This document shows positions 16,266 through 56,998 of a stretch of 64,000 nucleotides of DNA, in pieces. The notes beneath the pieces were generated by a model. The model did no database searches. It had not been told where the DNA came from and was given only the letters and a program-made list of their open reading frames with translations. Source of the DNA: Candidatus Eiseniibacteriota bacterium (GTDB lineage: Bacteria; Eisenbacteria; RBG-16-71-46; CAVPCR01); the NCBI GenBank assembly GCA_963823555.1, contig CAWGMA010000003.1, forward strand, positions 672,001 through 736,000, written 5' to 3'. The translations under genes were made by a program, and so were the position numbers. Numbering within the stretch: position 1 is the first letter of the stretch; the number at the start of each line of letters is the position of its first letter.

Positions 16266-17075
16266 ATGAACCCCCGACGGATCGCATTCCTCGGAGCTCT
16301 CATTGTCGCACTAACGAGTCTCTCAGTAACGGCTTACGCGAGCGGCGTGCTCTTCGACAACGGTGTCATGGTTGCCAACCTCGATCCCGGCAACCTCGCC
16401 AATCGCGGCTGTGGCGTTGCCTTCGATGGCACCTACTACTGGGCGGGTGAGGCCGGTACCTCGAGCGGCAACACGCTCAATCAGTACGATGCCGGCGGCG
16501 CCCTTCTGAATGCCTACCAGAGCGGTGTCGATCATCGTAGCATCTTCACTGATGGCGCCAACGATCTCTATGGGATGCGGTTTGGGGCCGGCGAACTCGT
16601 ACGTTACATGGGCGGTGTCCCGTCGCCCGTTTACACCCTGAATCCGAACTCACCCGACAGCCAGTCCGAACACGGGCTACGCACTTCGAACAACTCCCTC
16701 TACGGCAATGATGCCGGCACGATCTACGTCTACGACTTCGCTACCGGAATGCGCACGTCTTCGTTCAGCCTGTCCGGATACGCGGCAACCTATCCGGCCG
16801 ACGTTCAGCTTGCGGTTGCCAACGGGGCTGCCGACTACCTCCTGACCTACGATGACGCCGGCAATGTGGCGGCCTGGGACTTCGCCGGCAACCAGGTTGG
16901 CCTGTGTGCGATCGGCCTCAACACGTTCGATCAGATCTTCTCGTTCAGCTTCGCGAACGGGCTCGTCTGGATCGAAACGGCACGGAACAGCACCTGGAAC
17001 GGGTACGACATCGGGCTCGGCATGGCGACGGCCGTTGAGCCCACCACCTGGGGGGCGATCAAGGCCCGATTCTAG
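16266..17075 (+). CDS. Secreted beta-rich protein with C-terminal TWGxIK motif
   Basis: GAGGAGG RBS, signal peptide ending AYA, ends ATAVEPTTWGAIKARF. Confidence 0.8.
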   Translation: MNPRRIAFLGALIVALTSLSVTAYASGVLFDNGVMVANLDPGNLANRGCGVAFDGTYYWAGEAGTSSGNTLNQYDAGGALLNAYQSGVDHRSIFTDGANDLYGMRFGAGELVRYMGGVPSPVYTLNPNSPDSQSEHGLRTSNNSLYGNDAGTIYVYDFATGMRTSSFSLSGYAATYPADVQLAVANGAADYLLTYDDAGNVAAWDFAGNQVGLCAIGLNTFDQIFSFSFANGLVWIETARNSTWNGYDIGLGMATAVEPTTWGAIKARF

Positions 17076-17145
17076 GGGGCTGCGGCAGCCCGCATCCTCG
17101 ATGCGGTCGCCGGCAGCAGGTACTGAAAGTCTGTCATTGACGTGC

Positions 17146-17173
17146 GGCCCCGGCGGAAGGCTCCGCCGGGGCC
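17146..17173. terminator. GC-rich hairpin downstream of the secreted protein gene
   Basis: GGCCCCGGCGGA-aggc-TCCGCCGGGGCC 12-bp stem; weak U-tract. Confidence 0.45.
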
Positions 17174-17254
17174 CCGTGCTTATGAGAGACATGACAATTG
17201 TCTCCGCCAACCTTCGTGTGTATGGTCAGAGGAGTACCCCAGCAGGAGGACTCA

Positions 17255-18028
17255 ATGGATAGGAAGACCGTCATCCCGGCTCTGGTCGTCTTGCTGCTCG
17301 TTGCAGCCGTAGTCGTTTATTACCAGTTCTTCCGAGATCGAGAGCAGGCGGGAGTGACGACGACCGAGGAGTTCGCCGGCATCGAGCACGAGCCCGTGGC
17401 GGAAGGACGGAAGATCGAGTACATCGATGTCGAGCTGGACAAGAGCGACGAGCTGGTTCGTAGGCTCGCCGGAGGACTGTCGTCGCGCCCGGAGCTGGCC
17501 CGCTGGTTGCTTTCAGAGCAGCTGATCAGGAGCTTCGTCGCCGCGGCGGAGAACATCGCCGCCGGCCACAGTCCCCGCGCCCAGGTCCCGTTCTTCACGC
17601 CGAATGGGCCTTTTGCCGTCATCGAGGAGGACGGGGAGACCTTCGCCGATCCCGGGAGCTTCCGGCGCTATGACCTCTTTGCCGATGTCTTCACCTCGCT
17701 GGACACCGAGGGAACCATCACCTTGTACCGGCAGCTGACGCCGGCTATCAGCGAAGCCTACAAGGAGCTCGGTCATGCGGACGGTCGCTTCCATCCGACG
17801 CTGGAGCGGGCCATCGCAGAGCTCCTGCGAGTGCCGGTGGTGGAGGAGAGGATCTGGCTCGAGCCGCAGCTTGTCACTTACGAGCTGGTCGATCCTGGGC
17901 TGGAGGGCCTGAGCGCAGCGCAGAAGCACCTCCTTCGCATGGGGCCGGACAACGTGCGGTCGATCCAGGCCAAGCTCCGGGAGATCAGCCAGCACCCGGA
18001 CTTCCGAGCGGCCAGCGTTCGGCCGTAA
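17255..18028 (+). CDS. DUF3014 family membrane-anchored protein
   Basis: N-terminal TM helix; SFRRYD, EAYKELG, LEGLSAAQKHLLRMGPDN..IQAKLRE motifs; AGGAGG RBS. Confidence 0.85.
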   Translation: MDRKTVIPALVVLLLVAAVVVYYQFFRDREQAGVTTTEEFAGIEHEPVAEGRKIEYIDVELDKSDELVRRLAGGLSSRPELARWLLSEQLIRSFVAAAENIAAGHSPRAQVPFFTPNGPFAVIEEDGETFADPGSFRRYDLFADVFTSLDTEGTITLYRQLTPAISEAYKELGHADGRFHPTLERAIAELLRVPVVEERIWLEPQLVTYELVDPGLEGLSAAQKHLLRMGPDNVRSIQAKLREISQHPDFRAASVRP

Positions 18029-18087
18029 GGGCGGCGGGAACCCGATCTTCAGATCATGCGTCCTGCTGTCCCTGCGGGATGAGATCG

Positions 18088-18125
18088 AAAACGAAGATCC
18101 CCAGCCGGCGGGCCGGCTGGGGATC
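18088..18125 (-). terminator. Rho-independent terminator between convergent genes
   Basis: GATCCCCAGCCGG/CCGGCTGGGGATC stem, followed on the minus strand by TTCGTTTT. Confidence 0.7.
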
Positions 18126-18161
18126 CTCGTGTCGTTCGCTGCTGCGAATCGAGCGGGCCGA

Positions 18162-18971
18162 TTACCTGTTGTAGAGGCCCTTGATGTGCCCCCAAGTGGT
18201 CGGCTCGGTCGACGTCGCGCCGCCGCCGGTCCATGCCGCTGCCGAAAAGGTCCCGCTCCCGGTGAACGGGGAGGGAAGGGTTCCGACCTGGGAACCCGTG
18301 GCGGCATCGAAGATGTAGAAGTTGGCCTGCGTGGTGTTGGGACCGTCGGTCACGTAGTAGGCCAGGCCGGCGTTCATCGCGAGCCCGTCGATGTCGGTCT
18401 CGCCCGCCGGGTAGGGGGCGAGGAAGGTCGTCGACTGGGCCACCGTGTCGATCTCGTAGAGGCCGCGACCGGTCGATGGGGCGTCGGTCAGGCCATAGAG
18501 GTTCCCGTTGGTGGCGTCAACATCGAGACCGCCGAAATCGAACGTGCTCGGATAGACGTAGACCTGAGTGGCAATGAGCGTGACAGGATCGATCTCGTAG
18601 ACCGCCTCGGTCGCGATGTTCCGGGTGCCGAGGAGCATCCCATTGCGGAAACCCAGGGCGACGAAATTGACGGTCGCCGAGTTGAACATCATCGTCCCGA
18701 GCGTGGTCGGGGTCAGGCCACCCATGCTGAAAGGCGAGCTGTAGAGCGTTGACCCGTTGTTCCAGTAGAGGGTATTCGTGGTGCCGTCGTACGCCATGCC
18801 CCAGGGCTTGGCGTCAGACGTGCTCGCCGCGTAGAGCGATGTAGCGACACCGGTGTTGACGTCGACGTACCAGATGGTGGCGGTACCCGACTGGTCGTTG
18901 CCGACAACCAACTGGGCCTGCGCGCTGGTCGTAATGAGCGCCAAGGCCGCGGTCAGCAATATCCACTTCAT
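18162..18971 (-). CDS. Secreted beta-propeller-like protein with C-terminal TWGxIK motif
   Basis: Signal MKWILLTAALALITTSAQA; repeated YEID blades; ends ATSTEPTTWGHIKGLYNR. Confidence 0.82.
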   Translation of the reverse strand: MKWILLTAALALITTSAQAQLVVGNDQSGTATIWYVDVNTGVATSLYAASTSDAKPWGMAYDGTTNTLYWNNGSTLYSSPFSMGGLTPTTLGTMMFNSATVNFVALGFRNGMLLGTRNIATEAVYEIDPVTLIATQVYVYPSTFDFGGLDVDATNGNLYGLTDAPSTGRGLYEIDTVAQSTTFLAPYPAGETDIDGLAMNAGLAYYVTDGPNTTQANFYIFDAATGSQVGTLPSPFTGSGTFSAAAWTGGGATSTEPTTWGHIKGLYNR

Positions 18972-19212
18972 TGAGGCATTCCTCCCGTTGCTGATGTCTG
19001 GCAGAACCAAGCTGCGATCGACACGCGGTGGTGGCCGTTCCTTACCACCGGCGCCAATTCTCTACGAAACAACATCTTAGCAGAAATCCAGGTCGACGTC
19101 AATCAGCCCGCCTGAATCGTGTGGGCAATCAGGATGGTCCATGGTCGCCGGCTGCTAGAATCCTGCCCGCGGACCGCGACAACAACGCCGTTACCCTTCT
19201 AGGGAGGACATC

Positions 19213-19845
19213 ATGCGCAAGTCAGTTACCATCCTCGCGCTCATCATGTTGGTTGCGGCCGGCGCCCAGGCCGACGTCGTCATGGTCGAGGCGAGAGGGC
19301 AAGTCTTTTTCAATTCCATTCCGACCCCGCCGCTGGGCAACATCAGCTCGGGGGAGCAAGTTGTGATGTCGTTCACCGTCGATTCGAACAACTTCGTTGA
19401 AGGTATCCCAGGTGATACGCGCGGCTATGAGATCGATCAGCCATCGTTCTCGCTCGGGTTCTCGTCCGGCCTGGACATGGGGTTGATCAGTCCGTTCCCG
19501 GCGGGGCAGACGCCCTATTTCACGCTCGTCGAGGGGTTCCCGGTCAGCGACGGATTCTTCGTGTCCACGAGCCCGATCTCGCCGGGCGGTGTTCCCCTGG
19601 CCCAGGATCCTCACAACTTCAATCTGGATCTCGGTTATGTAGGCAGCACGCTCGGGTCGCTGGACATCCTGGACGCGCAGGGGACCTACGACTTCACCGG
19701 GCTGACCAGGTTCGCCTTCAACATCTGGCGGGTTTTCCCGGACAACGTGGTCCTGGACATCGACTTCGCGCAGATGAGCATCACGGCCGAACTGCTCGCG
19801 GTCGATCCATCGAGCTGGGGTGCGGTGAAAGTGCTGTTCAAGTAA
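19213..19845 (+). CDS. Secreted hypothetical protein with C-terminal SWGxVK motif
   Basis: GGAGG RBS; signal ending AQA; ends LLAVDPSSWGAVKVLFK. Confidence 0.82.
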   Translation: MRKSVTILALIMLVAAGAQADVVMVEARGQVFFNSIPTPPLGNISSGEQVVMSFTVDSNNFVEGIPGDTRGYEIDQPSFSLGFSSGLDMGLISPFPAGQTPYFTLVEGFPVSDGFFVSTSPISPGGVPLAQDPHNFNLDLGYVGSTLGSLDILDAQGTYDFTGLTRFAFNIWRVFPDNVVLDIDFAQMSITAELLAVDPSSWGAVKVLFK

Positions 19846-19872
19846 AGGCGATCCCTTCGCTCTCTTGCTCCC

Positions 19873-19905
19873 AGGACCCGGGTCTTGCCCCGGGTCCTTT
19901 CGTTT
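19873..19905 (+). terminator. Rho-independent terminator
   Basis: AGGACCCGGG-tcttgc-CCCGGGTCCT followed by TTCGTTT. Confidence 0.75.
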
Positions 19906-19943
19906 GGGGCCGGACGAAGGGGGTGGGCTTCACGGCTGGCGAC

Positions 19944-21242
19944 CTACCCCGTCAGCCAGTCGCACAGCTGATCGATCGCTGTGAGCACGTTGCGACAGTG
20001 GTTCTCGAGGAAGGACTGGCCGAGGGCTCGATCGGCGGGTGTCACCTCGGCAGCGGCCAGCGCGTGCGCTCCATCGAAATCGACGTAGGCCAGGCGCGCG
20101 GTCAACTCGTCGCTTCGCCGACCGAAGGCGCTCCCGGGGAGCATGGCCACGCCCGTGTCCTGGAAGATCGCCTCGCAAAGGCTCAGACTATCCCGCACTC
20201 CACGCTGGGCAAGCTTGTCGCGGAAGGGGGCAAAGTCAGGGAAGAGGTAGAAGGCTCCCTTCGGTTTCTCGATGTCAAGGCCGATGTCGTTCAGCCGGCG
20301 GGTGATCCAGCGGGCAAGAGCTGCGAGAACGCGGCGCGAGTTCCAGAGATAGCGCTCGATGGATATGCCACCCTGGAAGGCCCTGACTGCTGCGTACTGG
20401 ATCGGGGCGCTGGTTGTCGTGTAGGTCTCGCTGGCGGCGGTGGCCATCGACTCGAGGAGCCAGTTCAGGATCGGTGGAAAGGCGAAAGCGCCTAGCCGCC
20501 AGCCACCGGCCCCGCACCACTTGCTGAGCCCGGTCGAGATGATGGTCCCCTCGGGGTAGAAGCGAGCGATCGATACGTGCTGGCCCTTGTGGTGTAGACC
20601 ACCATAGATCTCGTCGGAGAGCAGGACGACGCGGTGTTGCCGCGCCACTCGGGCCAGGTCTTGTAGCTCATCCGCCTTGTAGGTGCCGCCGGTAGGATTG
20701 CTGGGATAGTTGAGGACGACGATCCGCGGCCGGCCCCGGTCCTGTTCGCAGTGCTTGGCGAGCTGATCCGGAGTCAGGCGCCAGCCGCTGGTCCTCTCGG
20801 TGTGAAGCCATTTCACCTGGCGGCCGATGATGTGCGCCTGAGGCGCGTAGGAAACCCAGGCGGGCGTGGGGATGACGATGTCTCCGTAATAGACAAGCTG
20901 TAGCAGGAACATCAGCTCTTTCGAACCGGGTCCCACCAGGACCTGATCACCGCTCAGGCAAACTCCCTGCATGCGGCAATGGTAGTCGGCGATGGCCAGC
21001 CGAAGTGCCTCGAGCCCCTTGACCGGAAGGTAGGCCTTCTGATGGGCGTTGGCCTTGAGCTCTTCAACCACCGGCTGCGGCACCGGGAAGGGGGATTGCC
21101 CGAGACCGAGCTTGTAGACCTGTTTTCCCTCTTTGCGCAAGCGGTCGCAGCGCTCGTTGATGGCGACCGTGGCCGACGGCAGCAGCCCGCGCACGTTGAG
21201 GTTGAGATTGACGTCGAGGGCCTTTGCTCGGACCTGTCCCAT
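19944..21242 (-). CDS. PLP-dependent aminotransferase class I/II (aspartate aminotransferase-like)
   Basis: NYPSNPTG, SDEIY, GLSKWCGAGGWRLG (PLP Lys), GAFYLFPDF. Confidence 0.92.
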   Translation of the reverse strand: MGQVRAKALDVNLNLNVRGLLPSATVAINERCDRLRKEGKQVYKLGLGQSPFPVPQPVVEELKANAHQKAYLPVKGLEALRLAIADYHCRMQGVCLSGDQVLVGPGSKELMFLLQLVYYGDIVIPTPAWVSYAPQAHIIGRQVKWLHTERTSGWRLTPDQLAKHCEQDRGRPRIVVLNYPSNPTGGTYKADELQDLARVARQHRVVLLSDEIYGGLHHKGQHVSIARFYPEGTIISTGLSKWCGAGGWRLGAFAFPPILNWLLESMATAASETYTTTSAPIQYAAVRAFQGGISIERYLWNSRRVLAALARWITRRLNDIGLDIEKPKGAFYLFPDFAPFRDKLAQRGVRDSLSLCEAIFQDTGVAMLPGSAFGRRSDELTARLAYVDFDGAHALAAAEVTPADRALGQSFLENHCRNVLTAIDQLCDWLTG

Positions 21243-21344
21243 GAGGTTACGACTCCCGCTTGGAATCCGAGAACTGAGCTCGGCTCTGCTTTCCCCGAGC
21301 CGCTGACTCCTTTGATTCAGCTTAGCACACTCGCATGTCGGGCT

Positions 21345-21737
21345 TTAGATCCAACCCAGGCGTTTCAGCGCGCCATAGACCAGGTAAACGCCGACCATGC
21401 AGACGAAGATGCCGAACAGCAGACGAAGGTGTGCCCCCTTCATCTGGTTGGCTGCGTAGGCACCTACCCAGGCCCCGGCGAACATGCTAGCGGCAACGAT
21501 GATCGCAGCGCGGACATCCACGTTGCCGTGACGGTAATACTCGATCGCCGCGGCGAGCCCGATGGGTGGCAGCAGCACGGCGAGGCTCGTTCCCGTCGCT
21601 CGGTGCTGAGAGAAGCCGGCCCAGTAGATGAGAGCGGGGACGATGACAAGCCCGCCGCCCACGCCGAACAAACCGGCGAAGGAGCCGCCGGCCAGGCCGA
21701 TGATCACGAAGATCCACCACGCTGGCATGCCATCCAC
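21345..21737 (-). CDS. Half-size TSUP (TauE/SafE sulfite exporter) family membrane protein
   Basis: GLFGVGGGLVIVPAL, QHRATGTSLA, YYRHGNVD; about 4 TM segments. Confidence 0.88.
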   Translation of the reverse strand: MDGMPAWWIFVIIGLAGGSFAGLFGVGGGLVIVPALIYWAGFSQHRATGTSLAVLLPPIGLAAAIEYYRHGNVDVRAAIIVAASMFAGAWVGAYAANQMKGAHLRLLFGIFVCMVGVYLVYGALKRLGWI

Positions 21738-22037
21738 CTTTCGTCTTGTGGAGTTCTCCTCGTCTCGTGAAGTCTCTCCGGCTAGCGGCCGGTCCCCTGT
21801 GCCCCGTGCGGTGGGCGGCCAGCGCCGGCGAGCGCGCCAGGGTCGACAGCAGGGAAACCGACGGGATCTTACCAGTGCCCGAGACCGCCTCGAAGCGGGT
21901 TGTCTCCTCCTTCCAGGGTCTTGTCGAGTGATCGGGGGAGGCTTTATGATCCCCCCCGTCCCGAAGCTGCGACCCGGTGGCTTGGCCGATCCCGCCGTTT
22001 CATCGGGTCGTTCACGTCACGATCAGGAGGTGTCCCG

Positions 22038-22550
22038 GTGTTGAAGTTGATCACCATTGCAGCCTGTGTATTGGCGGTTACGGCCGGAATGGCCTGGGCA
22101 GGAGACATGACGTCTCCCCATGGCAAGATGACGTCGGAGCAGATGCAGGCCATGAAGGCGAGCATGATGAAGTGCTCCGTATGCAAGCACATGGCGGTAC
22201 ACATGGACGAGCTGGGTCCAGTGATGACCATGGAAGTGGCCAAGCTGAACGACGGTATGGCCATGATGCACAACATCACCGACCCGGCCAAGATCGCCGT
22301 CTTTCGTGCGGCCGGCAAGGAGACGAGCGCAGCCGGCATGGCTTGCATGGCCATGACGGACGAGCAGGCCAAGGCCGAGCTCTGCGAGTTCTGCCAGGAG
22401 ATCCGCTCGGTCGTGAAGTCGGGTGCTACCATGAGCATGGGTGACACCAAGATGGGCGACATCATGGTGTTCACCTCCTCCGATCCGACCGTTCAAGCCA
22501 AGATTGCCGCCCTCGGCACCAAGTGCGAGATGATGGCAGGGGCGATGTAA
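22038..22550 (+). CDS. Secreted methionine-rich protein with two CxxC motifs
   Basis: AGGAGG RBS, GTG/TTG start, signal ending AWA; about 24 Met in about 170 aa; CSVCKH and CEFC. Confidence 0.8.
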   Translation: MLKLITIAACVLAVTAGMAWAGDMTSPHGKMTSEQMQAMKASMMKCSVCKHMAVHMDELGPVMTMEVAKLNDGMAMMHNITDPAKIAVFRAAGKETSAAGMACMAMTDEQAKAELCEFCQEIRSVVKSGATMSMGDTKMGDIMVFTSSDPTVQAKIAALGTKCEMMAGAM

Positions 22551-22585
22551 ACCGCGTCGATTCTGCCGCACCGCACTGGAAACAC

Positions 22586-22613
22586 GAGGCCCTCCACGAT
22601 CGTGGAGGGCCTC
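22586..22613. terminator. Perfect 28-bp palindrome between convergent genes (likely bidirectional terminator)
   Basis: GAGGCCCTCCACGATCGTGGAGGGCCTC. Confidence 0.65.
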
Positions 22614-22672
22614 ATCGCATGGCGCTGAGATCCCGTCGACGGAATGTGTGAGACGGGCCGGATTCGAACCGG

Positions 22673-24076: not shown

Positions 24077-24228
24077 GAGCCCTCCTTCGTGCGGGGGGAT
24101 CGCTGGGAACCGCCCGGCGCTCGGACCGCCCCACCTGACAACGATAGCGGACGATTTCTCGCCTAGCGTACGAATTCCCACCGGTTCCGTCGACCCCGGA
24201 TGCCGCCGCCCGCTCGCCCCGAATTGGC

Positions 24229-30718: not shown

Positions 30719-31441
30719 TTACTGGAAGATGGCCTTCAAGGCTCCCCAGGTGCCGCTCTCGACCGGGGTGGAGCAGTCGCTGTCGGCCGTGTCGTAGGCG
30801 TTATCCCCATCGTTGTCGAGGCCCTCGGGATCCCCAGCAAAGTCCTCGCTCGTGTTCGCGTTGCAGGCATCATCGGGCATGGCCGGGTGACCGGTGCCCG
30901 GATTGGCGTAGAAGCTCGGCAGGACATTCTCGCCCACGGGCGTGTAGCTTGCTGGGTTGGCATCGAGATGGCATTCGGCGCAGATCGTTGCTCCCGTATT
31001 GTAGTGATGCTGTCTGAGGCCGGCACCGTATCCGGTGCGTCCGGCGCCGACTTCTGGATTGCCGGCGACGTTGTCCTCCGCCCGGCCATGGCAGCCGACG
31101 CAGCCGATCGCGTCCAGGCCGCTGCCGCCGTCCGACGAATTCAAGATCACCGGGAACGTGTCTCCACCGCCATGACAGGTGTTGCAGTCGCTGTTCAGCA
31201 TGGTGGTCCGGTGCAGGTTGTGGAGATTCCCCCAGTTCATGCCGTCGGTGGCAGAGATGTATGAAGTCGCTCGGAAGTTGCCATGGCAGGCGCCGCAGTT
31301 GGTCGCGTCCCCGCCGTTCTGCGAGTACTGCCTGTAGGCAAGCCCTGGCTGACTCCAAAGGCAGAGAGTGGCGAGGGTGATAAGGCCAGTCGTGATGACC
31401 ACGAGGGATCGGGTTCCCGGGATCGAGTACCTCTTGTCCAT
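30719..31441 (-). CDS. Secreted tetraheme cytochrome c with C-terminal TWGxLK motif
   Basis: Signal peptide; CGACH, CNTCH, CVGCH, CAECH; Asp-rich GLDNDGDNAYDTADSDC; ends STPVESGTWGALKAIFQ. Confidence 0.85.
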   Translation of the reverse strand: MDKRYSIPGTRSLVVITTGLITLATLCLWSQPGLAYRQYSQNGGDATNCGACHGNFRATSYISATDGMNWGNLHNLHRTTMLNSDCNTCHGGGDTFPVILNSSDGGSGLDAIGCVGCHGRAEDNVAGNPEVGAGRTGYGAGLRQHHYNTGATICAECHLDANPASYTPVGENVLPSFYANPGTGHPAMPDDACNANTSEDFAGDPEGLDNDGDNAYDTADSDCSTPVESGTWGALKAIFQ

Positions 31442-44896: not shown

Positions 44897-45052
44897 CGGT
44901 CTCCTCCTGGCCGGCGGAACATCCCAGGTTCTGGTCCAAGGCGACCACTCTAGCGCAGGGCCGTCACCGCGCCCAGGGCGACGCCCGGGGCGAAGTGGTA
45001 GAATCGTAACGATGCGCGACGCTCGCGTGTCAAGGAAACAACGGAGGATCGC

Positions 45053-46798
45053 ATGCTGCGGACCGGTTGGCTCTTGCTCCTTGCGCTCGTCACCTTCTCC
45101 CTGTTCGCCGGCTCGCCCGCGACCGCCCAGTGGTCCTCCGATCCGGCCCTGAACTTCGCCATCGCCGACCGTACCTCCGAGCAGGTGCTGCCGAAGATCG
45201 CACCCACCGCCGACGGCGGGCTCTATGTGGGCTGGTTCGATCTCGCCAGCGGCAACTATGACGTCTACCTGCAGCGTCTCGACCGCGACGGGATGGAGCA
45301 GTGGCCGCACAACGGCATTCTGGTGAGCGCCAATGTCCAGAACACGTCGCTCGTGGACTGGGATCTGATCGCCGACTCGAGCGACAACGCGGTCCTCGTC
45401 TTCACCGACATCCGCACCGGGGGGGACCTCGATGTCTATGCCTATCGCGTAACCCCTGCGGGGCAGATGCTGTGGGGGGCGAACGGGGTTGCGCTCTCCA
45501 TGAACGACGACTTCGAGCCGGCTCCGCGTGTTGCCGAGGCCGGCGACGGCGACTTCGTCTTCATCTGGTCACGGCTTCCGGACGCCGCCGAAGCCGCCAT
45601 CATGATGCAGCGCCTGGCGCCGGATGGCACGCCGAGGCTCGCCGCGGGGGGCATCCCGGTGGTCGCCCAGAGCGGCGAGGATCCGGCTTTCTGCGCCATC
45701 GTCCCAGCCGAAGACGGCAATGTCATCGTTTCCTGGGTGCGTGACATCACCGTCTTCCAGAGCCCGCGCCACGTGCGAGCGCGGAAGTTCGACCCTGACG
45801 GGGTGCCCCTGTGGCCTGTCGTTATGGTGTTCGACGCCATCTCGGTGCCCATCGCCTACACGCCGCAGCTCAAGGCCGACGGGATGGGGGGCGCCATCGT
45901 GCTCTGGCACCGGAGCTCGGGGAACCTCTACAACTCGCTCGTGCAGCGCCTCGATGCCACGGGCACCGAGCTCTTCCCACACAACGGCATCACGGTCTCC
46001 CTCGAAGGCACCCGGCATCATCTCGATCCGGCCATGGCGCTCGATCCGCCGAGCGGCAACCTGGTCGTCGTCTGGAACGAGCGCAACGCGAATCAGTCGC
46101 AGTGGGGCATCTACGCCCAGAAGCTGTCGGTGGCCGGAGCCCGGCTGTGGGGCAATGACGGGATCGAGCTCCTCCCGGTCAATACGATCTGGAAGTCACC
46201 GCCGCGCTGCGCGCCGCTCGATGGCGGGGCCGTCGTCTTTCTCAGCGACGAGCCCACCGGTCAGTTCGCACGGGATCGGGTCCTGGGCATGCGCCTGGAT
46301 GCCAACGGGGCCCAGGTCTGGCCGAGCTCACCGCTCGTTGTCTCCTCGGTGTTGAGCAGTAAGTCACGCCTGCCCGTGGTTATTGACGGGGATGGCCGGG
46401 CCCTCATGGTGTGGGAGGATGATCGCAGCGGCACCGTCGACATCTACGGGCAGAACGTGAATCCGGACGGGACCCTGGGGCCCGCGTCAACCGGAGTCGA
46501 GGACCCGCTCGCAGCGCCGCCGGGGCGCCTCGTGCTGGCGCAGAACGAGCCCAACCCGTTTGCCGGCACGACCACGATTGCGGTCGCGCGTGGAGATGGC
46601 CGGCATCAGGGCGGGATCGAGATCTTCGATGCCGTGGGGCGGGTCGTCAGGCGCCTCGAGCTTCCCGCCGGCGCGCGCGCGGTCGTTTGGAACGGTCGTG
46701 GCGAGGATGGGGAGGGCCTCCCCAGCGGCACTTACTTCTACCGGCTGGTAGGGGATGAGCCGGGCACGGCCACCCGGAAGGCTGTCCTCCTCCATTAG
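45053..46798 (+). CDS. Secreted beta-propeller repeat protein with C-terminal FlgD-Ig/T9SS-like domain
   Basis: Signal peptide; repeated DVY(L/A)(Q/Y)R..G...W..NG units; TGVE linker, QNEPNPF..WNGRGEDGEGLPSGTYFYRL. Confidence 0.85.
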   Translation: MLRTGWLLLLALVTFSLFAGSPATAQWSSDPALNFAIADRTSEQVLPKIAPTADGGLYVGWFDLASGNYDVYLQRLDRDGMEQWPHNGILVSANVQNTSLVDWDLIADSSDNAVLVFTDIRTGGDLDVYAYRVTPAGQMLWGANGVALSMNDDFEPAPRVAEAGDGDFVFIWSRLPDAAEAAIMMQRLAPDGTPRLAAGGIPVVAQSGEDPAFCAIVPAEDGNVIVSWVRDITVFQSPRHVRARKFDPDGVPLWPVVMVFDAISVPIAYTPQLKADGMGGAIVLWHRSSGNLYNSLVQRLDATGTELFPHNGITVSLEGTRHHLDPAMALDPPSGNLVVVWNERNANQSQWGIYAQKLSVAGARLWGNDGIELLPVNTIWKSPPRCAPLDGGAVVFLSDEPTGQFARDRVLGMRLDANGAQVWPSSPLVVSSVLSSKSRLPVVIDGDGRALMVWEDDRSGTVDIYGQNVNPDGTLGPASTGVEDPLAAPPGRLVLAQNEPNPFAGTTTIAVARGDGRHQGGIEIFDAVGRVVRRLELPAGARAVVWNGRGEDGEGLPSGTYFYRLVGDEPGTATRKAVLLH

Positions 46799-46936
46799 GC
46801 AGCATTCAGCTATCGACTGGTTTTCCGTTAGGAGATGGTAAGCGCTTCGGGCTTCCGACAGCGGTCGCCTCGGCGCCACTCCCCCTCGCATGGGCTGGTC
46901 CGGATCAGGGCGCATCCCCCGCGTGGAGGGAAAGCC

Positions 46937-47725: not shown

Positions 47726-47760
47726 ACAAGGGCCCGAGCAGCAGGGCCGGTCCCCGGCTC

Positions 47761-49632: not shown

Positions 49633-49832
49633 CGCTATCCTCTTGTTGATCCGCCACTACGGGCGGGGCCATCTGGGGCGCGACCTGGGGCGGGTCGGTT
49701 GCGGGGGGAAGGCGGGATCCTAGCAGCATGCCGTCGGCAAGGCCAGCTGCAAGTACCGGCCCCCCCTCCGGAGCGCATCCGCAGCCCGCTGTGGTAAGAT
49801 GGAAAGCTCGTATGTCCTTGCTGGGAGGTGGT

Positions 49833-50153
49833 ATGCCATTCGTCGAAATGAACGGCCGCAAGCTCGAGGTCAACGAGGAGGGGTTCCTCGTCCATCCCGA
49901 GGAGTGGAACCAGGAAGTGGCCCTCATCCTTGCCCGCGCCGAGGAGCAGATCGACGCCCTCGGCCCCGAACACTGGGCGGTTATCGACACCATCCGGACC
50001 TACTATGAGGAGAAACAGATCGCTCCGATGATCCGCCTTCTGTGCAAGAGCTCGGGTGTCCCGCTCAAGCGGATCTACGAGCTCTTTCCGTCAGGTCCGG
50101 CCAAGGGTGCCTGCAAGCTCGCCGGGTTGCCCAAGCCGGACGGGTGCGTCTAG
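49833..50153 (+). CDS. dsrC: DsrC/TusE family sulfur relay protein with both C-terminal cysteines
   Basis: EEGFLVHPEEW, LFPSGPAKGACKLAGLPKPDGCV (CX10C); GGAGG RBS. Confidence 0.88.
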   Translation: MPFVEMNGRKLEVNEEGFLVHPEEWNQEVALILARAEEQIDALGPEHWAVIDTIRTYYEEKQIAPMIRLLCKSSGVPLKRIYELFPSGPAKGACKLAGLPKPDGCV

Positions 50154-50167
50154 GGGGCAGCGCGGCG

Positions 50168-50803
50168 ATGGTTCCTGGGGTGCCGGCTGGAATCGAAACC
50201 TGGGCCTTGCTCTCCGCCCTGTGGGCCCTGGCCGGGATGACCTTCCTCGTGGTGCGGACGTTCTCCTATGCTCGCAAGCCGTACCTGGCCGAGGCGAGCG
50301 GCAGCGCCGCAGGCGGTATTCTCTACGCCTTCGGCCCCGGGATGTCGCCCACGGCCAAGGAGAGCGTGCGCGAGCACCTGCCGACCTACTTCGCCGGGAT
50401 CGGCTACCACCTGGGGATCTTCGTGGCCCTGGCCACGTTCCTGCTCGTGGTGAGCGGAATCGGGGTGCCGGCGCCCATCCGCTGGCCGGCCGGTGCCCTC
50501 CTCGGAGCGGGTTTCGCTGCGGGTCTCTTTCTCATGGCCCGGCGTGCCGCCGATCGGGGTCTGCGGGCGCTGAGTCTGCCCGATGACTACGTCGCCAATA
50601 TTCTCACCGATCTTCTCGTTCTCTCTGCCCTCGTGTTCGTGTTCGATCCGGCCGCGGCTCCGGTCTTCCTCGGTGTCGCCATCCCGTTCTTCATCTACCT
50701 GCCGCTCGGGAAGGTGCGGCATTGCATCTTCTTCTTCGTGAGCCGGACCCTGTTCGGCGCCCTCTATGGTCGCCGCAACGCCTTCCCACCGGGCGGTCAT
50801 TAG
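50168..50803 (+). CDS. Short NarI/DsrM-like membrane subunit (putative cytochrome b)
   Basis: About 5 TM segments; GYHLGIF, LRALSLPDDY, YLPLGKVRH; lies between dsrC and the Fe-S subunit. Confidence 0.7.
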   Translation: MVPGVPAGIETWALLSALWALAGMTFLVVRTFSYARKPYLAEASGSAAGGILYAFGPGMSPTAKESVREHLPTYFAGIGYHLGIFVALATFLLVVSGIGVPAPIRWPAGALLGAGFAAGLFLMARRAADRGLRALSLPDDYVANILTDLLVLSALVFVFDPAAAPVFLGVAIPFFIYLPLGKVRHCIFFFVSRTLFGALYGRRNAFPPGGH

Positions 50804-50822
50804 GTTGCAGCAAGAGACCACG

Positions 50823-52163
50823 ATGCAGCAGAGCGGCAACGGCGATTCATACAGCGAGCGGCTCGAGAACCTGACATCTGAGGATGGGCGCCAGGTCCGG
50901 GATGCATTTCTCGCGCGTCTCGATGCTCGCGCGGCAGCCTACCTCAACGCCTGCGTGCGCTGCGGGCTGTGTGCCGGCGCTTGCCACTACTACCGAACCG
51001 ATGGCGAGGTCGATTCCATCCCGGCTCGCAAGCTCGAGCTCCTGGCCAGCGCCTTCCGTCGCGAGCGCACGCTACTCGGGCGTCTGATGCCGGAGCTCGC
51101 CGGCGCGCAGGAGCTCACTCCTGAACACGTGCGCCGGTGGGTGGACGCGCTCTTCGGGCGCTGCACGGTTTGTGGCCGGTGTGCTGTCAACTGCACGATC
51201 GGGATTCACCTTCCTGCCCTCTTTCGCGCCGGGCGTGGGGCGCTGGCGGCGGCTGGACTCCTGCCGCCCGATCTGGCGGCGACCATTGCCACGCATCGCG
51301 AGACCGGCAACAACATGGGGATCACCTCCGAGGATTGGGTCGAGACCGTGGAGTGGCTCGAGGAGGAGTTGCGCCTCGAGCCCGGATGCGCCGCGGCGCG
51401 CCTGCCGCTCGACGAGAAGGGGACGCGGATCCTCTACACGGTGAACCCGCGCGAGGCCAAGTTCTTCCCTCTCTCGCTGGTCGCGGCCGCCAAGATCTTC
51501 CATGCGGCTGGCGAGAGCTGGACCCTGAGCCGCACGCTTCCCGATCTCACCAACTGGGGCCTCTTCAGCGGGGATGCCGCCCTCGCGCGACCGCTGGCCG
51601 AGAAGCTCGTCGCGCTCATGGACCAGCTTGGAGCACAGATGCTCGTGGTCGGGGAGTGCGGCCACGGCTTCGCCTCCAATCGCTGGGAAGGGCCCGAATG
51701 GCTGGGGCGGCGCTACGGCTTCCCGGTCAAGAGCGTCCTCGAGATCTACGACGAGTACCTGGCGTCCGGAAAGCTCGAGCTCGATCCGACGCGCAATCCC
51801 GATCCGGTCACCCTTCACGATCCCTGCAACCTGGTGCGCATGGGTGGCGTGAGCATGCCGCAGCGCCGGGTGCTCGCCCGCTCGGTCCAGTTCTTCACCG
51901 AGATGGCGCCGCGGGGGCTGCACAACTTCTGCTGCGGCGGCGGGGGGGGACAGCTCGCCATGGGGCGCTACACAGCACGCCGCTTGAAGGCTGGTGGGGT
52001 CAAGGCCGAGCAGATCCGCGACACGGGGGCCCGTGTCGTCGCCGCGCCCTGCCACAATTGCATCGATCAAATCGCCGAGCTCAGCAAGCACTACAAGCTC
52101 GGCGTCGAGGTCAAGACGGTGGGGGAGATCCTCGCCGACGCGCTCGTGCTCGCCGACGCGTGA
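50823..52163 (+). CDS. DsrK/HmcF/HdrD-like Fe-S protein with CCG domain
   Basis: CVRCGLCAGAC, CTVCGRCAVNC, GECGHG, HDPCNL, CCGGGGG, APCHNC. Confidence 0.88.
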   Translation: MQQSGNGDSYSERLENLTSEDGRQVRDAFLARLDARAAAYLNACVRCGLCAGACHYYRTDGEVDSIPARKLELLASAFRRERTLLGRLMPELAGAQELTPEHVRRWVDALFGRCTVCGRCAVNCTIGIHLPALFRAGRGALAAAGLLPPDLAATIATHRETGNNMGITSEDWVETVEWLEEELRLEPGCAAARLPLDEKGTRILYTVNPREAKFFPLSLVAAAKIFHAAGESWTLSRTLPDLTNWGLFSGDAALARPLAEKLVALMDQLGAQMLVVGECGHGFASNRWEGPEWLGRRYGFPVKSVLEIYDEYLASGKLELDPTRNPDPVTLHDPCNLVRMGGVSMPQRRVLARSVQFFTEMAPRGLHNFCCGGGGGQLAMGRYTARRLKAGGVKAEQIRDTGARVVAAPCHNCIDQIAELSKHYKLGVEVKTVGEILADALVLADA

Positions 52164-52209
52164 GTCCGGGCAGCCGCCGGTCAGTCGACTTCGGCTCGCA
52201 CCCCATCGA

Positions 52210-53418
52210 TCAGCTCTTCACCTCGAGCCTCGCCCCGGCGGCCCTCTTCTGGTTCAGTTGGCGGCGGAACTCGGTGATCTCGCGCACCGCGCGGATCGCT
52301 GTTGCGATGTGCTCCTCGGTGTTGAAGGGGCCGACGCCCAGGCGAACGGCGCCGTGCTGATCGGTGCCGAGGGCTTCGTGGACGAGCGGGGCACAATGAA
52401 GCCCGGTGCGGCAGGCGATCGAATGATCCATGTCGAGCATGGTGCCGGTATCGGCGGCTTCCTGCCCATCCACATTGAAGAGCAACACGCTGATGTGATT
52501 CTCGAGATCGTCCTGGCAATAGAGCGTCACGCCGTCGATCTCGTGGAGGCCATCGCGGAGCTGGCGTGTGAGTCGCATCTCGTGGTCCTGGATCGACTCG
52601 AGCCCGCGCTGGAGGATCCACTTGAGGCCGGCCTGGAGCCCGGCGATGCCGACGAGGTTGGGCGTGCCATATTCGAGGCGATAGGGATACTCCTCGAGGT
52701 GGGTGCGCTGAGCGGAGCGCACACCGGTGCCGCCGGCCCGGGTGATGCGAATCTCGACGTCCTCGCCGACGCAAAGACCGCCGACTCCCGTGGGGCCGAG
52801 GAGGGATTTGTGTCCGGTGAAGGCCACCACGTCGATGCCCTGGGTCGCCATGTGGATCGGTACCTTGCCTGCGGTCTGCGAGGCGTCGATCAAGAAGCGA
52901 ATGCCATGCTGCCGGCAGCGGGCTCCGATCTCGGCGATCGGCTGCACGGTGCCGATGACGTTCGAGCCATGGTTGACCGCAACCAGTCGCGTGTTCTTCT
53001 TGAACCTGCGCGCCACGTCCTCCGGGTCGATGAAGCCTCCGGCGTCGAACGGGATGTAGTCGATCTCGACTCCGGCCATCCCCTGGTGGTAGAGGGGGCG
53101 CAGCACCGAGTTATGCTCGAGATGGGTGGTGATCGCGTGGTCGCCGGGCTCGAGCATGCCGAAGATGGCCAGGTTCAGCGCATCGGTTGAATTGCCGGAA
53201 AAGACGAGACGATTGGGATCGCTACCGCCGAAGAACTTGCAGAGCATGCGGCGGGTATCCTCGACCATCTCCCCCGATTCGATGCAGAGGTCGTATCCGG
53301 ATCGCCCAGGATTGACCCCGAAGTTGCGATAAAAGAAGTCCATCTGCCGATAGACTTCCTCGGGCTTGGGAAACGAGGTCGAGCCGTTGTCGAGATAGAT
53401 CACCTTCTCCATGCGCAT
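52210..53418 (-). CDS. Class V PLP-dependent cysteine desulfurase family protein
   Basis: IYLDNGSTSFPKP, EHNSV, DASQTAG, TGHKSLLGP, RTGLHCAP. Confidence 0.92.
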   Translation of the reverse strand: MRMEKVIYLDNGSTSFPKPEEVYRQMDFFYRNFGVNPGRSGYDLCIESGEMVEDTRRMLCKFFGGSDPNRLVFSGNSTDALNLAIFGMLEPGDHAITTHLEHNSVLRPLYHQGMAGVEIDYIPFDAGGFIDPEDVARRFKKNTRLVAVNHGSNVIGTVQPIAEIGARCRQHGIRFLIDASQTAGKVPIHMATQGIDVVAFTGHKSLLGPTGVGGLCVGEDVEIRITRAGGTGVRSAQRTHLEEYPYRLEYGTPNLVGIAGLQAGLKWILQRGLESIQDHEMRLTRQLRDGLHEIDGVTLYCQDDLENHISVLLFNVDGQEAADTGTMLDMDHSIACRTGLHCAPLVHEALGTDQHGAVRLGVGPFNTEEHIATAIRAVREITEFRRQLNQKRAAGARLEVKS

Positions 53419-53494
53419 CCCTCCACCACCATTATCTCCCACCCCCTCAGGTCCGGTCAAAGCAGGCGATGCTCCTCAAGGGGGGCGTTTCCTG

Positions 53495-54553
53495 TCAGCG
53501 GACGATCAGGATCCGGGCCGTCGCCTGCTCCCGGCCCTGAACCAGCCGCGCCAGATAGATCCCGGACGGCACTCGCGATCCGGCATCGCTCCTGCCATCC
53601 CAGCGGACGACATGGGATCCGGCTTCCAGCCGGCCGCGGATCGGGGCCGCCATTCGCCGTCCGAGCACGTTGAAGATGTCGAGCTGGATCAAGCCCGCGG
53701 CCGGGAGCTCGAACCGGAGCTCGGCCGCGCTTCCCGCCGGCTCGCTTCCGCCGAGAACGAGCCGCAACGCTCCGGTCTCCGGGGCCTCGGCGCCGATCGC
53801 GCTCGGGGACCCGGGAATCCAGGCGGCGCCGCCCGTCGAGTGATGGGCCGGGTAGGGGTTGGTGAAGGGTGTCCAGGCGCCGCCCGGCCCCTGGCTCAGG
53901 TCGTAGGCGAAGCAGGGTTCCCCCTCGTCGCCGCGCGTGGCCAGGAGATAGACCGTGTTGTTGCCGACGGCGAGCGCTCGTCCCTGTCCGTTGACATTGG
54001 GCGGGCTCCCCACGAGGCGCGTCATGGCCCCGGAGTCGATGTCGATCGCGTAGAGGCCGCTCGCTCCGTACTCGGTGTAGCCGTAGAGCTTGTCATCGAG
54101 CGGGTTGTAGTCGAGCCCGAAGAAGCGGAAGCCCTGCGCCGACGTGTCGATCGCGAGCGTCGCCACGCCGGTCTGCGCATCGATGGCATAGATGCCGAGC
54201 GGAGAGGTGAAGTTCGAGTATCCGTAGAGCCGACCCCGGCCGTAGCCCATACCGTGCACGTCGACCGTGACGTTGGCCACGAACTGGGGAGGTCCGGTGA
54301 GGGTCGAGCGGTAGAGGCGAGTGGTGAACGGGCCGTTGCACAGGTAAAGCGTGCCGTCCGGGGCGCAGGCGGCGCCGTTCACCTCGAACGGGAAGTGGTC
54401 CGTCCAGGTGACACCAGGGAAGCCGGCGAGATCGGAGGACCGGGTCACGAGGGAGGATTGCTCGAGCCCCACGAAGAGCCGCTGGGCGTCGGCCGAGGTG
54501 GGGAGAAGCAGAGCCAGGGAGGTGGTGGCCAGAAGGGCGAGGAGGATTCGCAT
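53495..54553 (-). CDS. Secreted beta-propeller-like protein with C-terminal FlgD-Ig domain
   Basis: Signal ending ADA; YAID blades; tail DIFNVLGRR..WDGRSDAGSRVPSGIYLARL. Confidence 0.85.
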   Translation of the reverse strand: MRILLALLATTSLALLLPTSADAQRLFVGLEQSSLVTRSSDLAGFPGVTWTDHFPFEVNGAACAPDGTLYLCNGPFTTRLYRSTLTGPPQFVANVTVDVHGMGYGRGRLYGYSNFTSPLGIYAIDAQTGVATLAIDTSAQGFRFFGLDYNPLDDKLYGYTEYGASGLYAIDIDSGAMTRLVGSPPNVNGQGRALAVGNNTVYLLATRGDEGEPCFAYDLSQGPGGAWTPFTNPYPAHHSTGGAAWIPGSPSAIGAEAPETGALRLVLGGSEPAGSAAELRFELPAAGLIQLDIFNVLGRRMAAPIRGRLEAGSHVVRWDGRSDAGSRVPSGIYLARLVQGREQATARILIVR

Positions 54554-54793
54554 CGGGGTTCCCTTCCCTCAGGGTGTTGTTCAGCGCGGCCGCAGTACCT
54601 TCCAGCATATCACCGGGATGAGGGCGCAGGAACGGGCGGCGGAATCCAGGGTGCCCTGCGGGCGCCACGCCGGCGATTGCGGCTTCCTTATGGCCGAAAG
54701 GACCAAGGCGGTCTAGTATGGGAGTTCCCCATCCGGTCGCCGCCATGAACCACCTGGGCCGCCTTTCTTGCGTTTGGACTCCGGGAGGGAAGC

Positions 54794-56437
54794 ATGCCTC
54801 AGTTTGTTTACCAGCCGATGTTCGAGCTCGGGGCGGACAAGACCGAATACAAGCTCTTGCGGACCGATCTGGTATCGACTGCGAGCTTCGACGGCCGCGA
54901 GATCCTGAAGGTGCGCCCCGAGGCGCTCGAGTTCCTCACCGTGCAGGCGATGGCCGACGTCTCTCACCTGCTGCGTGCCAGTCATCTGGCGCAACTACGC
55001 GGTATTCTCGATGATCCAGAGGCCTCGAACAACGATCGCTTCGTCGCACTGGAGCTGCTCAAGAACGCGGTGATTGCGGCGGAGGGCGAGTTACCGAGCT
55101 GCCAGGATACCGGCACCGCGATCGTCATCGGGCACAAGGGAGAGGATGTCCAGACCGGAGTCGACGACGCCGAGTGGCTGTCGCGGGGCATCCACAAGGT
55201 CTACGGGGAGTGGAATCTTCGCTACTCGCAGATGGCGCCCATCGACATGTACACCGAGAAGAACACGGGCAGCAATCTCCCGGCACAGATCGAGATCTAC
55301 GCCGAGCCCGGTGACGAGTACCATCTGCTCTTTCTCGCCAAGGGCGGCGGCTCGGCCAACAAGACGTATCTCTTCCAGGAGACCAAGGCGCTCCTGAACC
55401 CGGATTCGCTCTCGAGCTTCGTCGCCGACAAGATCCGTTCCCTGGGCACCGCGGCCTGTCCGCCCTATCACCTGGCCCTGGTGGTCGGCGGCACATCGGC
55501 CGAGCTCACGCTCAAGACGGTCAAGCTCGCCACCGCCCGGTACCTGGATGGACTACCGACGACCGGGACCGAGAGCGGGCGGGCTTTCCGCGACGTCGCC
55601 TTCGAGGAGAAGGTGCTCGATCTATGCCGGAAGGCCGGGATCGGTGCCCAGTTCGGCGGCAAGTACTTCGCCCACGATGTGCGGGTCATCCGCCTCCCAC
55701 GCCACGGCGCGTCCTGCCCGGTGGGAATCGGCGTTTCGTGCTCGGCCGACCGGCAGATCCTCGGCAAGATCACCCGCGACGGGATCTTCCTCGAGAAGCT
55801 GGAGACGGATCCCGCCCAGTACCTGCCCGATGTGACCGAGAAGGACCTGGTGGGGACGGCGGTCGAGATCGATCTCAATCGACCGATGGCCGAGATCCGC
55901 GCCGAGCTCTCCAGGCATCCGGTCGCCACCCTGGTCAAGCTCACGGGGCCGCTCGTCGTCGCCCGCGACATCGCGCACGCCAGGCTCAAGGAGCGGCTCG
56001 ACCGCGGCGAGGGCCTGCCGCAGTACTTCAAGGATCTCGCCGTCTACTACGCCGGGCCGGCCAAGAAGCCGGAGGGCCGGGCCTCGGGATCGTTCGGTCC
56101 GACCACGGCCGGTCGCATGGACTCCTACGTCGACCTCTTCCAGAGCCAGGGCGGGAGCATGGTGATGCTGGCCAAGGGCAACCGCTCGGCGCAGGTCCGG
56201 GAGGCCTGCAAGAAGCACGGCGGCTTCTACCTCGGGTCGATCGGCGGTCCGGCGGCGCGTCTCGCCGATCACTCGATCAAGAAGGTCGAGGTGCTCGAAT
56301 ACCCTGAGCTCGGCATGGAAGCGATATGGAAGATCGAGGTCGAGGACTTCCCGGCCTTCATCGTCGTCGACGACAAGGGGAACGACTTCTATGCCGATCT
56401 CGGCCGCCCGCAGGGAGCGATTCCGATCGCGCGCTGA
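54794..56437 (+). CDS. fumA: Class I (Fe-S) fumarate hydratase
   Basis: [41 protein letters not shown]. Confidence 0.96.
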
Positions 56438-56458
56438 GAGCCGGCTCGGAGGCGAGTT

Positions 56459-56998
56459 CTACTCGTTGAAGATGTCCTTGACTCGTCCCCAGGTCGCCGG
56501 CTTGATGTCGACCGGCCCCTCCACCATGATCTTGGCATCATCGATGCGAAAGATGTGGTCGTAGTGGCCGGAAATCGAGATCCCGTGCAGCTGGCCGCTG
56601 CTGCGGATCCTGCTCGTGAGATCGAAGCGCGTCCAGGACGACCCCGCATGCTCATGCGGGAACTCGTCCCAGTCGCCGCCGCTCGGCGAGTAGAGGAGCC
56701 GCACGACGTGATTCACCATGGCGGGCGACTTGCAGTAGAGCGAGATCTCGAGGACATCGCCCACCGCCACCGGAGCGATCGTCTGCTGCAGTGACGAGCC
56801 GCTCGTGTTCTCGGCACAGTAGGTCCCCGTGTGAGCGTCACCCGATGTGACCGACCAGGCGCTTCCGGCCCAGGGGGCGATCACGCCGTCCTCGAAACCG
56901 GGGTTCGTGAGCTGATTCACCGGAATGCCGGCCGCGGTCCCGTGGAGCAGGATGAGCCCCAGGGCGATGGCCGTTGTCGTGAGGTTCAACTTGATCAT
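56459..56998 (-). CDS. Secreted CBM-like jelly-roll protein with C-terminal TWGxVK motif
   Basis: Signal peptide; NQLTNPGFEDG, AHTGTY, FRIDD; ends PVDIKPATWGRVKDIFNE. Confidence 0.8.
   Translation of the reverse strand: MIKLNLTTTAIALGLILLHGTAAGIPVNQLTNPGFEDGVIAPWAGSAWSVTSGDAHTGTYCAENTSGSSLQQTIAPVAVGDVLEISLYCKSPAMVNHVVRLLYSPSGGDWDEFPHEHAGSSWTRFDLTSRIRSSGQLHGISISGHYDHIFRIDDAKIMVEGPVDIKPATWGRVKDIFNE

Follow-up and report, generated by a model that had tools for sequence, protein, structure and literature searches.

A short C-terminal tail, first noticed on five secreted proteins encoded in 64,000 nucleotides of a Candidatus Eiseniibacteriota genome (the window, by which we mean the whole stretch of DNA analysed), occurs on 105 different proteins of that genome, whose bodies fall into 64 families, and is very probably a sorting or anchoring signal. 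The tail is 14-17 residues long, with the consensus [TV][AP]V[ED]x2[TS]WGx[IVL]Kx2[YF]. Related bodies carry in its place a type IX secretion (T9SS) C-terminal domain (CTD), PEP-CTERM ends or dockerin-like repeats. We see about an even chance that, as a docking tag, it belongs to a dedicated branch of a motor-less T9SS, that is, one lacking GldN; that it feeds into such a branch we infer from its distribution. The connection to T9SS was added by the present analysis and formed no part of the earlier note on this DNA.

A terminal motif on small, probably exported proteins

All five open reading frames (ORFs) and their near-identical ends were found where the earlier note had placed them (Table 1), the gene at 19213-19845 lying on the plus strand. 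An aromatic residue stands zero to two residues before the stop in every one, and all five N-termini are Sec-like by eye and by a hydropathy heuristic, as had been claimed. In a six-frame translation of the 4.62 Mb source genome, W[GS]x[ILVM]K fell within 16 residues of a stop in 124 of 172 matches, 94 of them at 8-10 residues, against 15 of 75 for a reversed-motif control. The terminal clustering of the motif is not chance. A weight matrix (score at least 18) was built from 71 terminal seeds, which had been picked near stops, and gave 109 matches: 104 within 16 residues of the stop, three at 17-30 and two internal. Among the 38 non-seed matches, 33 were within 16 residues. The 107 terminal matches reduce to the 105 distinct tails once two duplicates at contig ends are left out, and a genome-wide profile count thus bears out the tail as far more numerous than the original five. 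W, G and K occur in all 105 (partly by selection), I/V/L likewise in 105, T/S before the W in 104 and Y/F in 85. Identical tails and CTDs are repeated at contig ends (the end of C2 and start of C4; the start of C1 and end of C3), some with broken frames, which suggests overlapping or error-prone assembly ends.

The strictly C-terminal location proposed at the outset holds for 107 of the 109 matches, within 30 residues of the stop, but not for the two internal copies, which sit in duplicated-domain lipoproteins. Likewise the [TS]WGx[IVL]K core of the proposed consensus stands, but the aromatic residue is dispensable in Poribacteria and the upstream V[ED] is lineage-variable. Because this upstream part differs between lineages, we take [TS]WGx[IVL]K as the invariant core.

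Using our own crude gene caller and the hydropathy heuristic, N-termini were signal-like in 69 of 93 called tail genes and 145 of 238 CTD genes, against 744 of 2587 other genes, in keeping with the expected co-occurrence of tail and signal peptide. A relaxed rule gave 85 of 107 tail ORFs against 751 of 2043 others, the 22 misses including short or broken ORFs. Pfam searches on 54 family representatives returned 12 matches (PKD, beta-helix, LTD twice, CHRD, LamG, PD40, RCC1 and four DUF rows), all of them non-enzymatic modules of the sort seen in exported proteins, with no cytoplasmic enzyme among them. The carriers are small (median 228 residues), and none of 93 bodies exceeds 500 residues, against 129 of 238 CTD bodies. 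Over the last 25 residues the maximum 13-residue hydropathy has a median of 0.51 and a highest value of 1.6, which leaves no transmembrane (TM) segment. The amphipathic helix with W, I and F on one face, as the earlier note pictured it, was not borne out: the moment at 100 degrees is 0.354, within the range of shuffles (mean 0.325, maximum 0.370), and is higher at 170-180 degrees. AlphaFold places a helix of seven residues (183-189) in window protein 3, detached from the body and with a pLDDT of about 50-60.

Exchange with known C-terminal signals

A CTD-bearing paralog exists for 39 of the 107 tail bodies, and for 26 of the 107 tail proteins, in nine of the 64 families, the CTD begins where the tail would; one tail/CTD paralog pair is 68% identical over 210 residues. 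Homologs of window proteins 2 and 3 that are 62-82% identical end in PEP-CTERM or dockerin-like repeats instead. For protein 2, the best 120 of 430 homologs include 17 that carry the tail (one being protein 2 itself), 85 with a PEP-CTERM-like end, one with a dockerin-like end and 17 with some other end. The best 120 of 358 homologs of protein 3 comprise 72 with the tail, 29 PEP-CTERM-like, 15 with a TM helix and basic end, and four others. These labels come from our own regular expressions, PF07589 being precomputed on 13 of the 240, and tail-bearing homologs are favoured in both lists because each query contained the tail. When 1.84 billion representatives were searched by profile, 970 matched; among the best 150, the motif is within 16 residues of the end in 147, one match is a repeat of the phage-tape-measure-like kind, and at least six have tandem (two to four), internal or N-terminal copies, mostly in lipoproteins.

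Judged by these junctions, the tail behaves as a swappable sorting signal would. The exchanges with CTD and PEP-CTERM, the missing TM segment and the lack of any Pfam or NCBIfam model together give good support to the idea of a C-terminal sorting signal that is undescribed and has no TM helix.

Spread across phyla and a conserved founder protein

A scan of one genome per species found at least 120 loci, 107 of which end real ORFs, the other 13 being short or chance. Record titles of the real ORFs are mostly Eisenbacteria, Krumholzibacteriia, Latescibacterota, Poribacteria, Zixibacteria, Ignavibacteria and Kapabacteria, with Rhodothermaceae, Chlorobiaceae, Calditrichia, KSB1, Marinimicrobia and a few Alphaproteobacteria, Chitinophagales and Bacteroidia besides. 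The tails of the source genome, spread over many bodies, seem to be like those in the Eisenbacteria-type records. Because the tail hidden Markov model (HMM) is insensitive, with two matches in a Poribacteria genome that has 28 by pattern, DNA patterns were used for the genome scans. A V[ED]-containing pattern caught 98 of 206 and missed most of two families, which the core pattern recovered. TWGxIK is present in 122 of 125 genomes of the source phylum (control 1) and SprA_N in 118 of the 125. In Poribacteria a looser pattern was found in 61 of 61 genomes, with 2-82 copies in each (control 0-4) that mostly lack the aromatic residue.

Ignavibacteria-like lineages carry the tail on one conserved protein of 130-150 residues, which we call the founder and which consists of a signal, an FnIII module and S[GS]VKRTWGSIKAMFR. 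Its body has a mean column identity of 36%, conservation of W, G and K extends across phyla, and AlphaFold leaves the tail without structure. In the source genome a founder-type FnIII module stands 14-28 residues before the CTD in eight proteins, and a founder twin (signal, FnIII and CTD) is present in genome G206. No partner gene was seen beside the founder in its neighbourhoods, where we take the neighbours to be MATE, SpoIID/LytB-like, Maf-like and pyr genes, named from best matches. Here (C1:377798-378346, with a body that is presumably cohesin-like) and, as the FnIII founder, in several Bacteroidota (L243:9397-9804, L237:9566-9967, L042, L063, L080 and L152), a tail gene lies immediately upstream of pyrR or pyrB; either deep synteny or chance may account for this. 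A second conserved signal-peptide protein, of 140-150 residues and ending in TWG[RK]IKALF[RK], occurs in L005, L014, L053, L074 and L095 (some of them Zixibacteria-titled), and in the four records with flanks it sits between a rex-like gene and anti-sigma-factor genes.

The Bacteroidota sample comprised 221 genomes, 177 of them SprA-positive (123 without and 54 with GldN) and 44 SprA-negative. The pattern matched 79; four rows were dropped, three for an out-of-frame stop and one an in-frame TWGLIKVLFG in a GldN-positive genome, and five founders were added by HMM after 78 genomes were searched again, giving 80. With those rows dropped, founder or tail is present in 80 of the 123 SprA-positive genomes without GldN, in none of the 44 SprA-negative genomes and in none of the 54 with GldN, and in all 80 the tail marks the one conserved FnIII protein. 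The other 43 SprA-positive, GldN-negative genomes lack the tail, and both PorV and PorU occur in the tail-less group. PorU2 (NF052324) was considered as cognate enzyme and rejected: it occurs in 47 of the 80 tail genomes and in 32 tail-less ones, including 26 of the 54 that have GldN and no tail.

A lipoprotein that accompanies the tail

Three lipoprotein genes at C1:1650359-1653470 bear terminal and internal tails. Two relatives, LpA and LpB, form a pair at C2:173417-174911 behind a barrel-like gene (C2:174939-176930; whole locus C2:173417-176930, L301) whose product of 663 residues ends in YVF and matches no family over cut-off. The order of barrel and LpA is kept in six of six close metagenome loci, and no barrel homolog was found beside LpA in the flanks searched of the Bacteroidota loci fetched. 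LpA of the source genome ends in SSWSLVKGENR, its orthologs in [ST]WSx[LF]K[GA]x[FY] (W in 27 of 27, K in 25 of 27) and three close orthologs in TTWGIL[KR]GLNR. When LpA and the tails were compared as profiles, the alignment covered just the 15 columns at the end, a weak match (probability 14.7, E 0.0018). The motif common to the LpA end and the tail is a second, separate link between them. Pfam, NCBIfam and the PDB returned no match for LpA itself; among named atlas clusters the nearest are NTF2-like, at 0.81-0.86, which is a lead only.

A full-length LpA profile matched 82 of the 221 Bacteroidota genomes, 79 of them tail-positive, and 138 have neither LpA nor tail. This overlap of 79 genomes overstates independence, since most genomes behind the profile were tail-positive ones of the same sample and the losses are confined to few branches. 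The GldN-positive genome G364 has an LpA-LpB pair (C22:573874-574353, L339) and no tail protein was detected in it; transfer, contamination or a missed variant is possible. The earlier note had also proposed a dedicated export or anchoring system, which gains a candidate partner in LpA; its receptor and protease are putative.

T9SS parts and the CTD linker

The source genome encodes PorU (475 bits, cut-off 420), SprA (451, cut-off 200) and a PorV-family protein (191, cut-off 90). A local HMM found CTDs on 262 ORFs, none of them with the tail, and TIGR04183 gave 150 scored matches. GldN was not found in this 92.5% complete genome, while the same family matched 54 Bacteroidota genomes. No match to exosortase (PF09721) was found either, the control matching 1 of 14, nor any PEP-CTERM-like end; PF11751 (PorP/SprF) also gave no match, and no positive control matched it. 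C1 carries no fewer than 16 peptidase C25 domains that are nearly full-length, together with six or more genes of the PorV family, several in receptor-CTD protein-PorV cassettes. In a porU-porV cluster (C1:709866-713186; L143:15866-19183) a protein of 1106 residues has a weak SprA-like stretch and is preceded by two DUF5683-like genes and an NHL-repeat gene.

Of 93 tail genes, 44 have a CTD gene no more than two genes away, where the controls averaged 20 and reached 31 at most. The first half of the tail resembles both the [AGS][VI][ED] of CTD linkers and the published PT/GI cleavage consensus of PorU (PMC11969387). [AGS][VI][ED] occurs in 60 of 243 CTD linkers, against a shuffle mean of 28 and maximum of 41, with a peak 17-20 residues before the CTD, and in 47 of the 105 tails; P[VI][ED] occurs in 31 of the 105. 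A de novo motif search in the CTD linkers returned only Pro/Ala-rich composition (7.06 against controls of 6.61 and 6.78), so that the enrichment comes from the targeted patterns only. Near the end, K/R is at -6 in 215 of 262 CTDs and a Lys is invariant in 105 of 105 tails, the latter partly by selection. A predicted complex of PorV (from G206) with the tail scored 0.01 against a mark of 0.32, which is evidence neither way.

Proposed mechanism and alternatives

According to PMC10994853, T9SS cargo binds PorV in the SprA lumen with a near-invariant Lys contacting PorV, and energy from the Gld/Por motor releases cargo from the translocon. PMC11969387 describes PorU cutting at PT/GI-like sites and working CTDs of 40-55 residues that are cleaved and glycosylated, and PMC12618676 describes type B signals that rely on their own shuttles. 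PMC12635249 yielded no phylogenetic statements. In the scheme we favour, small tail-bearing proteins would be exported by Sec, and the T-W-G-x-I-K core would then bind one conserved site, like that used by the [ST]W[SG]x[LF]K end of LpA; LpA and its paralog LpB would be the receptor, or a fixed client of the receptor. Cargo would be transferred to the SprA translocon or an attachment complex and so reach the outer membrane or surface, and PorU might optionally cut some of it at the upstream [TS]/[AGS]V[ED] segment. A protein present in single copy, for instance LpA or the FnIII founder, was probably the ancestral carrier, and the tag probably spread later onto tens of passengers in some phyla. 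A fuller version, which we hold possible though less likely than the docking tag as such, is an undescribed export branch in which the linear TWGxIK would be read by an NTF2-like LpA module. Small folded proteins such as c-type cytochromes and lipoproteins would leave through SprA without a folded CTD in Fibrobacteres-Chlorobi-Bacteroidetes (FCB)-type bacteria without a Gld motor; founder and LpA would be the core parts, and the cargo would have expanded to tens or more than 100 in Eisenbacteria-like phyla, Latescibacterota and Poribacteria.

Several observations weigh against a T9SS branch. Poribacteria are rich in the tail, yet SprA falls under cut-off and PorV was not found at 1e-25 in G208, and PorU-like proteins are under cut-off in three of three genomes. 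SprA_N was unmatched in six of the 122 tail-positive genomes of the source phylum, all drafts of 120-660 contigs. Pro occupies the predicted +1 position in 45 of 105 tails, and CTD linkers show no enrichment of P[VI][ED]. LpA adjoins neither T9SS genes nor the founder; among the Bacteroidota, G414 has the tail only and G262, G395 and G364 have LpA only, the last being GldN-positive. Because 41 SprA-positive, GldN-negative genomes have neither tail nor LpA, a motor-less T9SS needs neither. Few independent losses underlie the profile, and shared ancestry could yield the same pattern. The tandem, internal and N-terminal copies are, from their placement, a misfit for obligatory C-terminal transpeptidation. 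Binding, export and cleavage are only steps that we infer, around a putative receptor and location.

Part of this evidence would suit a dockerin-like anchor independent of T9SS, in which the tail binds a scaffold (LpA/LpB, or an outer-membrane barrel like the one beside LpA here) and holds its bearer in the periplasm or at the outer membrane, the overlap with SprA reflecting shared ancestry. The repeated copies in at least six of the best 150 matches, mostly lipoproteins, the dockerin-like repeats at the same place in homologs, the failure to find canonical PorV and PorU over cut-off in Poribacteria, and the barrel gene that precedes LpA-LpB here and in the metagenome loci all fit it, and LpA tracks the tail far better (79 of 83) than SprA does (80 of 177). 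It sits poorly with the failure to find the tail in any of the 44 SprA-negative genomes, with the junction-matched CTD swaps and common linker motif, and with the lack of a barrel homolog in the Bacteroidota flanks; we think it rather improbable, though it is the best of the rivals. A quite unlikely alternative is that the tail is a minimal T9SS CTD, an extreme of the short Prevotella type, read by PorV/SprA through the invariant Lys, then cleaved by PorU and attached to a glycan at the surface. The Lys near the end of both tails and CTDs, its contact with PorV in the structures of PMC10994853, the processed short CTDs of PMC11969387 and the several PorV-family genes of the source genome speak for this. 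Yet 14-17 residues are too few for the three-strand minimum of short CTDs, GxY and motif B are absent, PorV and PorU also occur in the tail-less lineage, PorU2 does not track the tail, and LpA is left unexplained. Least likely of all, by a little, is a receptor-free role as a lipid- or lipopolysaccharide-binding helix, or as a tag by which a periplasmic tail-specific protease sets turnover. The tail is indeed short, basic and hydrophobic, with a low-confidence helix in one model, but its helical amphipathicity is no better than that of shuffles, and the swaps with true sorting signals and the co-loss with LpA would go unexplained. The conservation of W, G and K across phyla, set beside a mean column identity of 36% in the founder body, suggests a defined pocket, which also argues against such a role.

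Features of the window

Table 1. Tail-bearing proteins, their tails and CTD-bearing ORFs (positions in the 64,000-nt window; the five tail-bearing ORFs span 16266..56998)
Feature	Position	Strand	Description
Tail-bearing protein 1	16266..17075	+	269 aa; N-terminus signal-like; no Pfam/NCBIfam match to the body
Tail of protein 1	17028..17075	+	TAVEPTTWGAIKARF + stop; profile score 49.9
Tail-bearing protein 2	18162..18971	-	269 aa; at the same junction homologs have tail, PEP-CTERM, extra domains or dockerin-like repeats
Tail of protein 2	18162..18215	-	TSTEPTTWGHIKGLYNR + stop; profile score 42.1
Tail-bearing protein 3	19213..19845	+	210 aa; predicted all-beta body, tail detached; homologs with tail or PEP-CTERM-type TM tails
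Tail of protein 3	19795..19845	+	LAVDPSSWGAVKVLFK + stop; profile score 35.3
Tail-bearing protein 4	30719..31441	-	240 aa; c-type cytochrome-like, 4 CxxCH motifs
Tail of protein 4	30719..30769	-	TPVESGTWGALKAIFQ + stop; profile score 34.8
Tail-bearing protein 5	56459..56998	-	179 aa; CBM_4_9/NTTRR-F1-like body, under cut-offs; further in-frame ATG upstream at 57061
Tail of protein 5	56459..56512	-	VDIKPATWGRVKDIFNE + stop; profile score 22.0
T9SS type A-like CTD ORF	8907-10577	+	
T9SS type A-like CTD ORF	10703-14893	-	
T9SS type A-like CTD ORF	45053-46798	+	
T9SS type A-like CTD ORF	53495-54553	-	
T9SS type A-like CTD ORF	57079-57507	-	
T9SS type A-like CTD ORF	~62950 to past window end	+	

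Six ORFs with a type A-like CTD thus lie within or overlap the window. Heme motifs (CxxCH) occur on two tail proteins, window protein 4 and the product of C2:452799-453368 (two motifs), and also on four CTD proteins, which suggests exported c-type cytochromes among the candidate cargo of both kinds.

Comparison with known systems

Neither the five window proteins nor 56 tails matched a Pfam or NCBIfam model through the tail, TIGR04183/PF18962 included (0 of 5 and 0 of 56), and the genome's own CTD HMM matched no tail ORF. PDB sequence searches with the tail, founder and LpA gave nothing at E<0.05. We found no description of the motif, or of T9SS in the tail-bearing phyla, in a literature search that mostly left out subscription journals and so leaves absence from print unproven. 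The tail is real, widespread, nameless and of the sorting type; it belongs to none of the families tested yet seems to work in their place. It labels about 3% of source-genome genes and, at tens per genome, proteins across whole uncultured phyla that are mostly annotated as hypothetical. Published T9SS work (PMC10994853) ties release to the Gld/Por motor, yet 123 of the 177 SprA-positive Bacteroidota genomes have no GldN match. Tail, founder and LpA are concrete single genes for knock-out in GldN-less organisms, some of them cultured, and a 15-residue export tag, if true, would be useful as a display tool.

LPXTG/sortase, GlyGly-CTERM and MYXO-CTERM signals gave no NCBIfam match for the 56 tails, which have no TM helix; the enzymes themselves were not searched for. 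PEP-CTERM (PF07589, with exosortase PF09721) shares the junction on the 62-82% identical bodies of other organisms, and we take the VEP[SA]TW of source-lineage tails to resemble the PEP[SA]TW start of some PEP-CTERM tails. Unlike PEP-CTERM, the tail has neither TM helix nor basic cluster, its genome has no exosortase match, and the VEP part is missing from the founder and shifted in Poribacteria. The GC-type dockerin of Phycisphaerae, a non-covalent anchor, takes the same position on homologous bodies and also comes in repeated copies, but the tail is one short linear motif without an EF-hand-like repeat. T9SS type B CTDs with PorP/SprF (PMC12618676) are a precedent for an alternative signal needing its own partner; they have 150-235 residues and a barrel shuttle usually encoded downstream, whereas the tail is short with no adjacent partner gene. 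Nearest is the T9SS type A CTD (TIGR04183/PF18962), including the short Prevotella intermedia CTDs of PMC11969387. Both are C-terminal on signal-peptide proteins, without a TM helix and with a conserved Lys near the end; both can follow a small residue plus V/I linker, and both swap on the same bodies and occur in SprA-positive genomes. The Sec signal and C-terminal position are there, as are SprA, PorV and PorU in the genome, but the tail gives no family match and shows neither the beta-sandwich nor three or more strands bearing motifs B, D (GxY) and E. A CTD is 40-100 residues long and folds as that sandwich, while the tail has 14-17 residues, an invariant Trp-Gly, bodies of at most 500 residues here and the capacity for tandem or internal copies, is absent from the GldN-positive genomes sampled and is tied to LpA. 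It would add a new class of sorting signal, a short linear peptide that is neither a motif with TM helix and basic tail nor a folded CTD.

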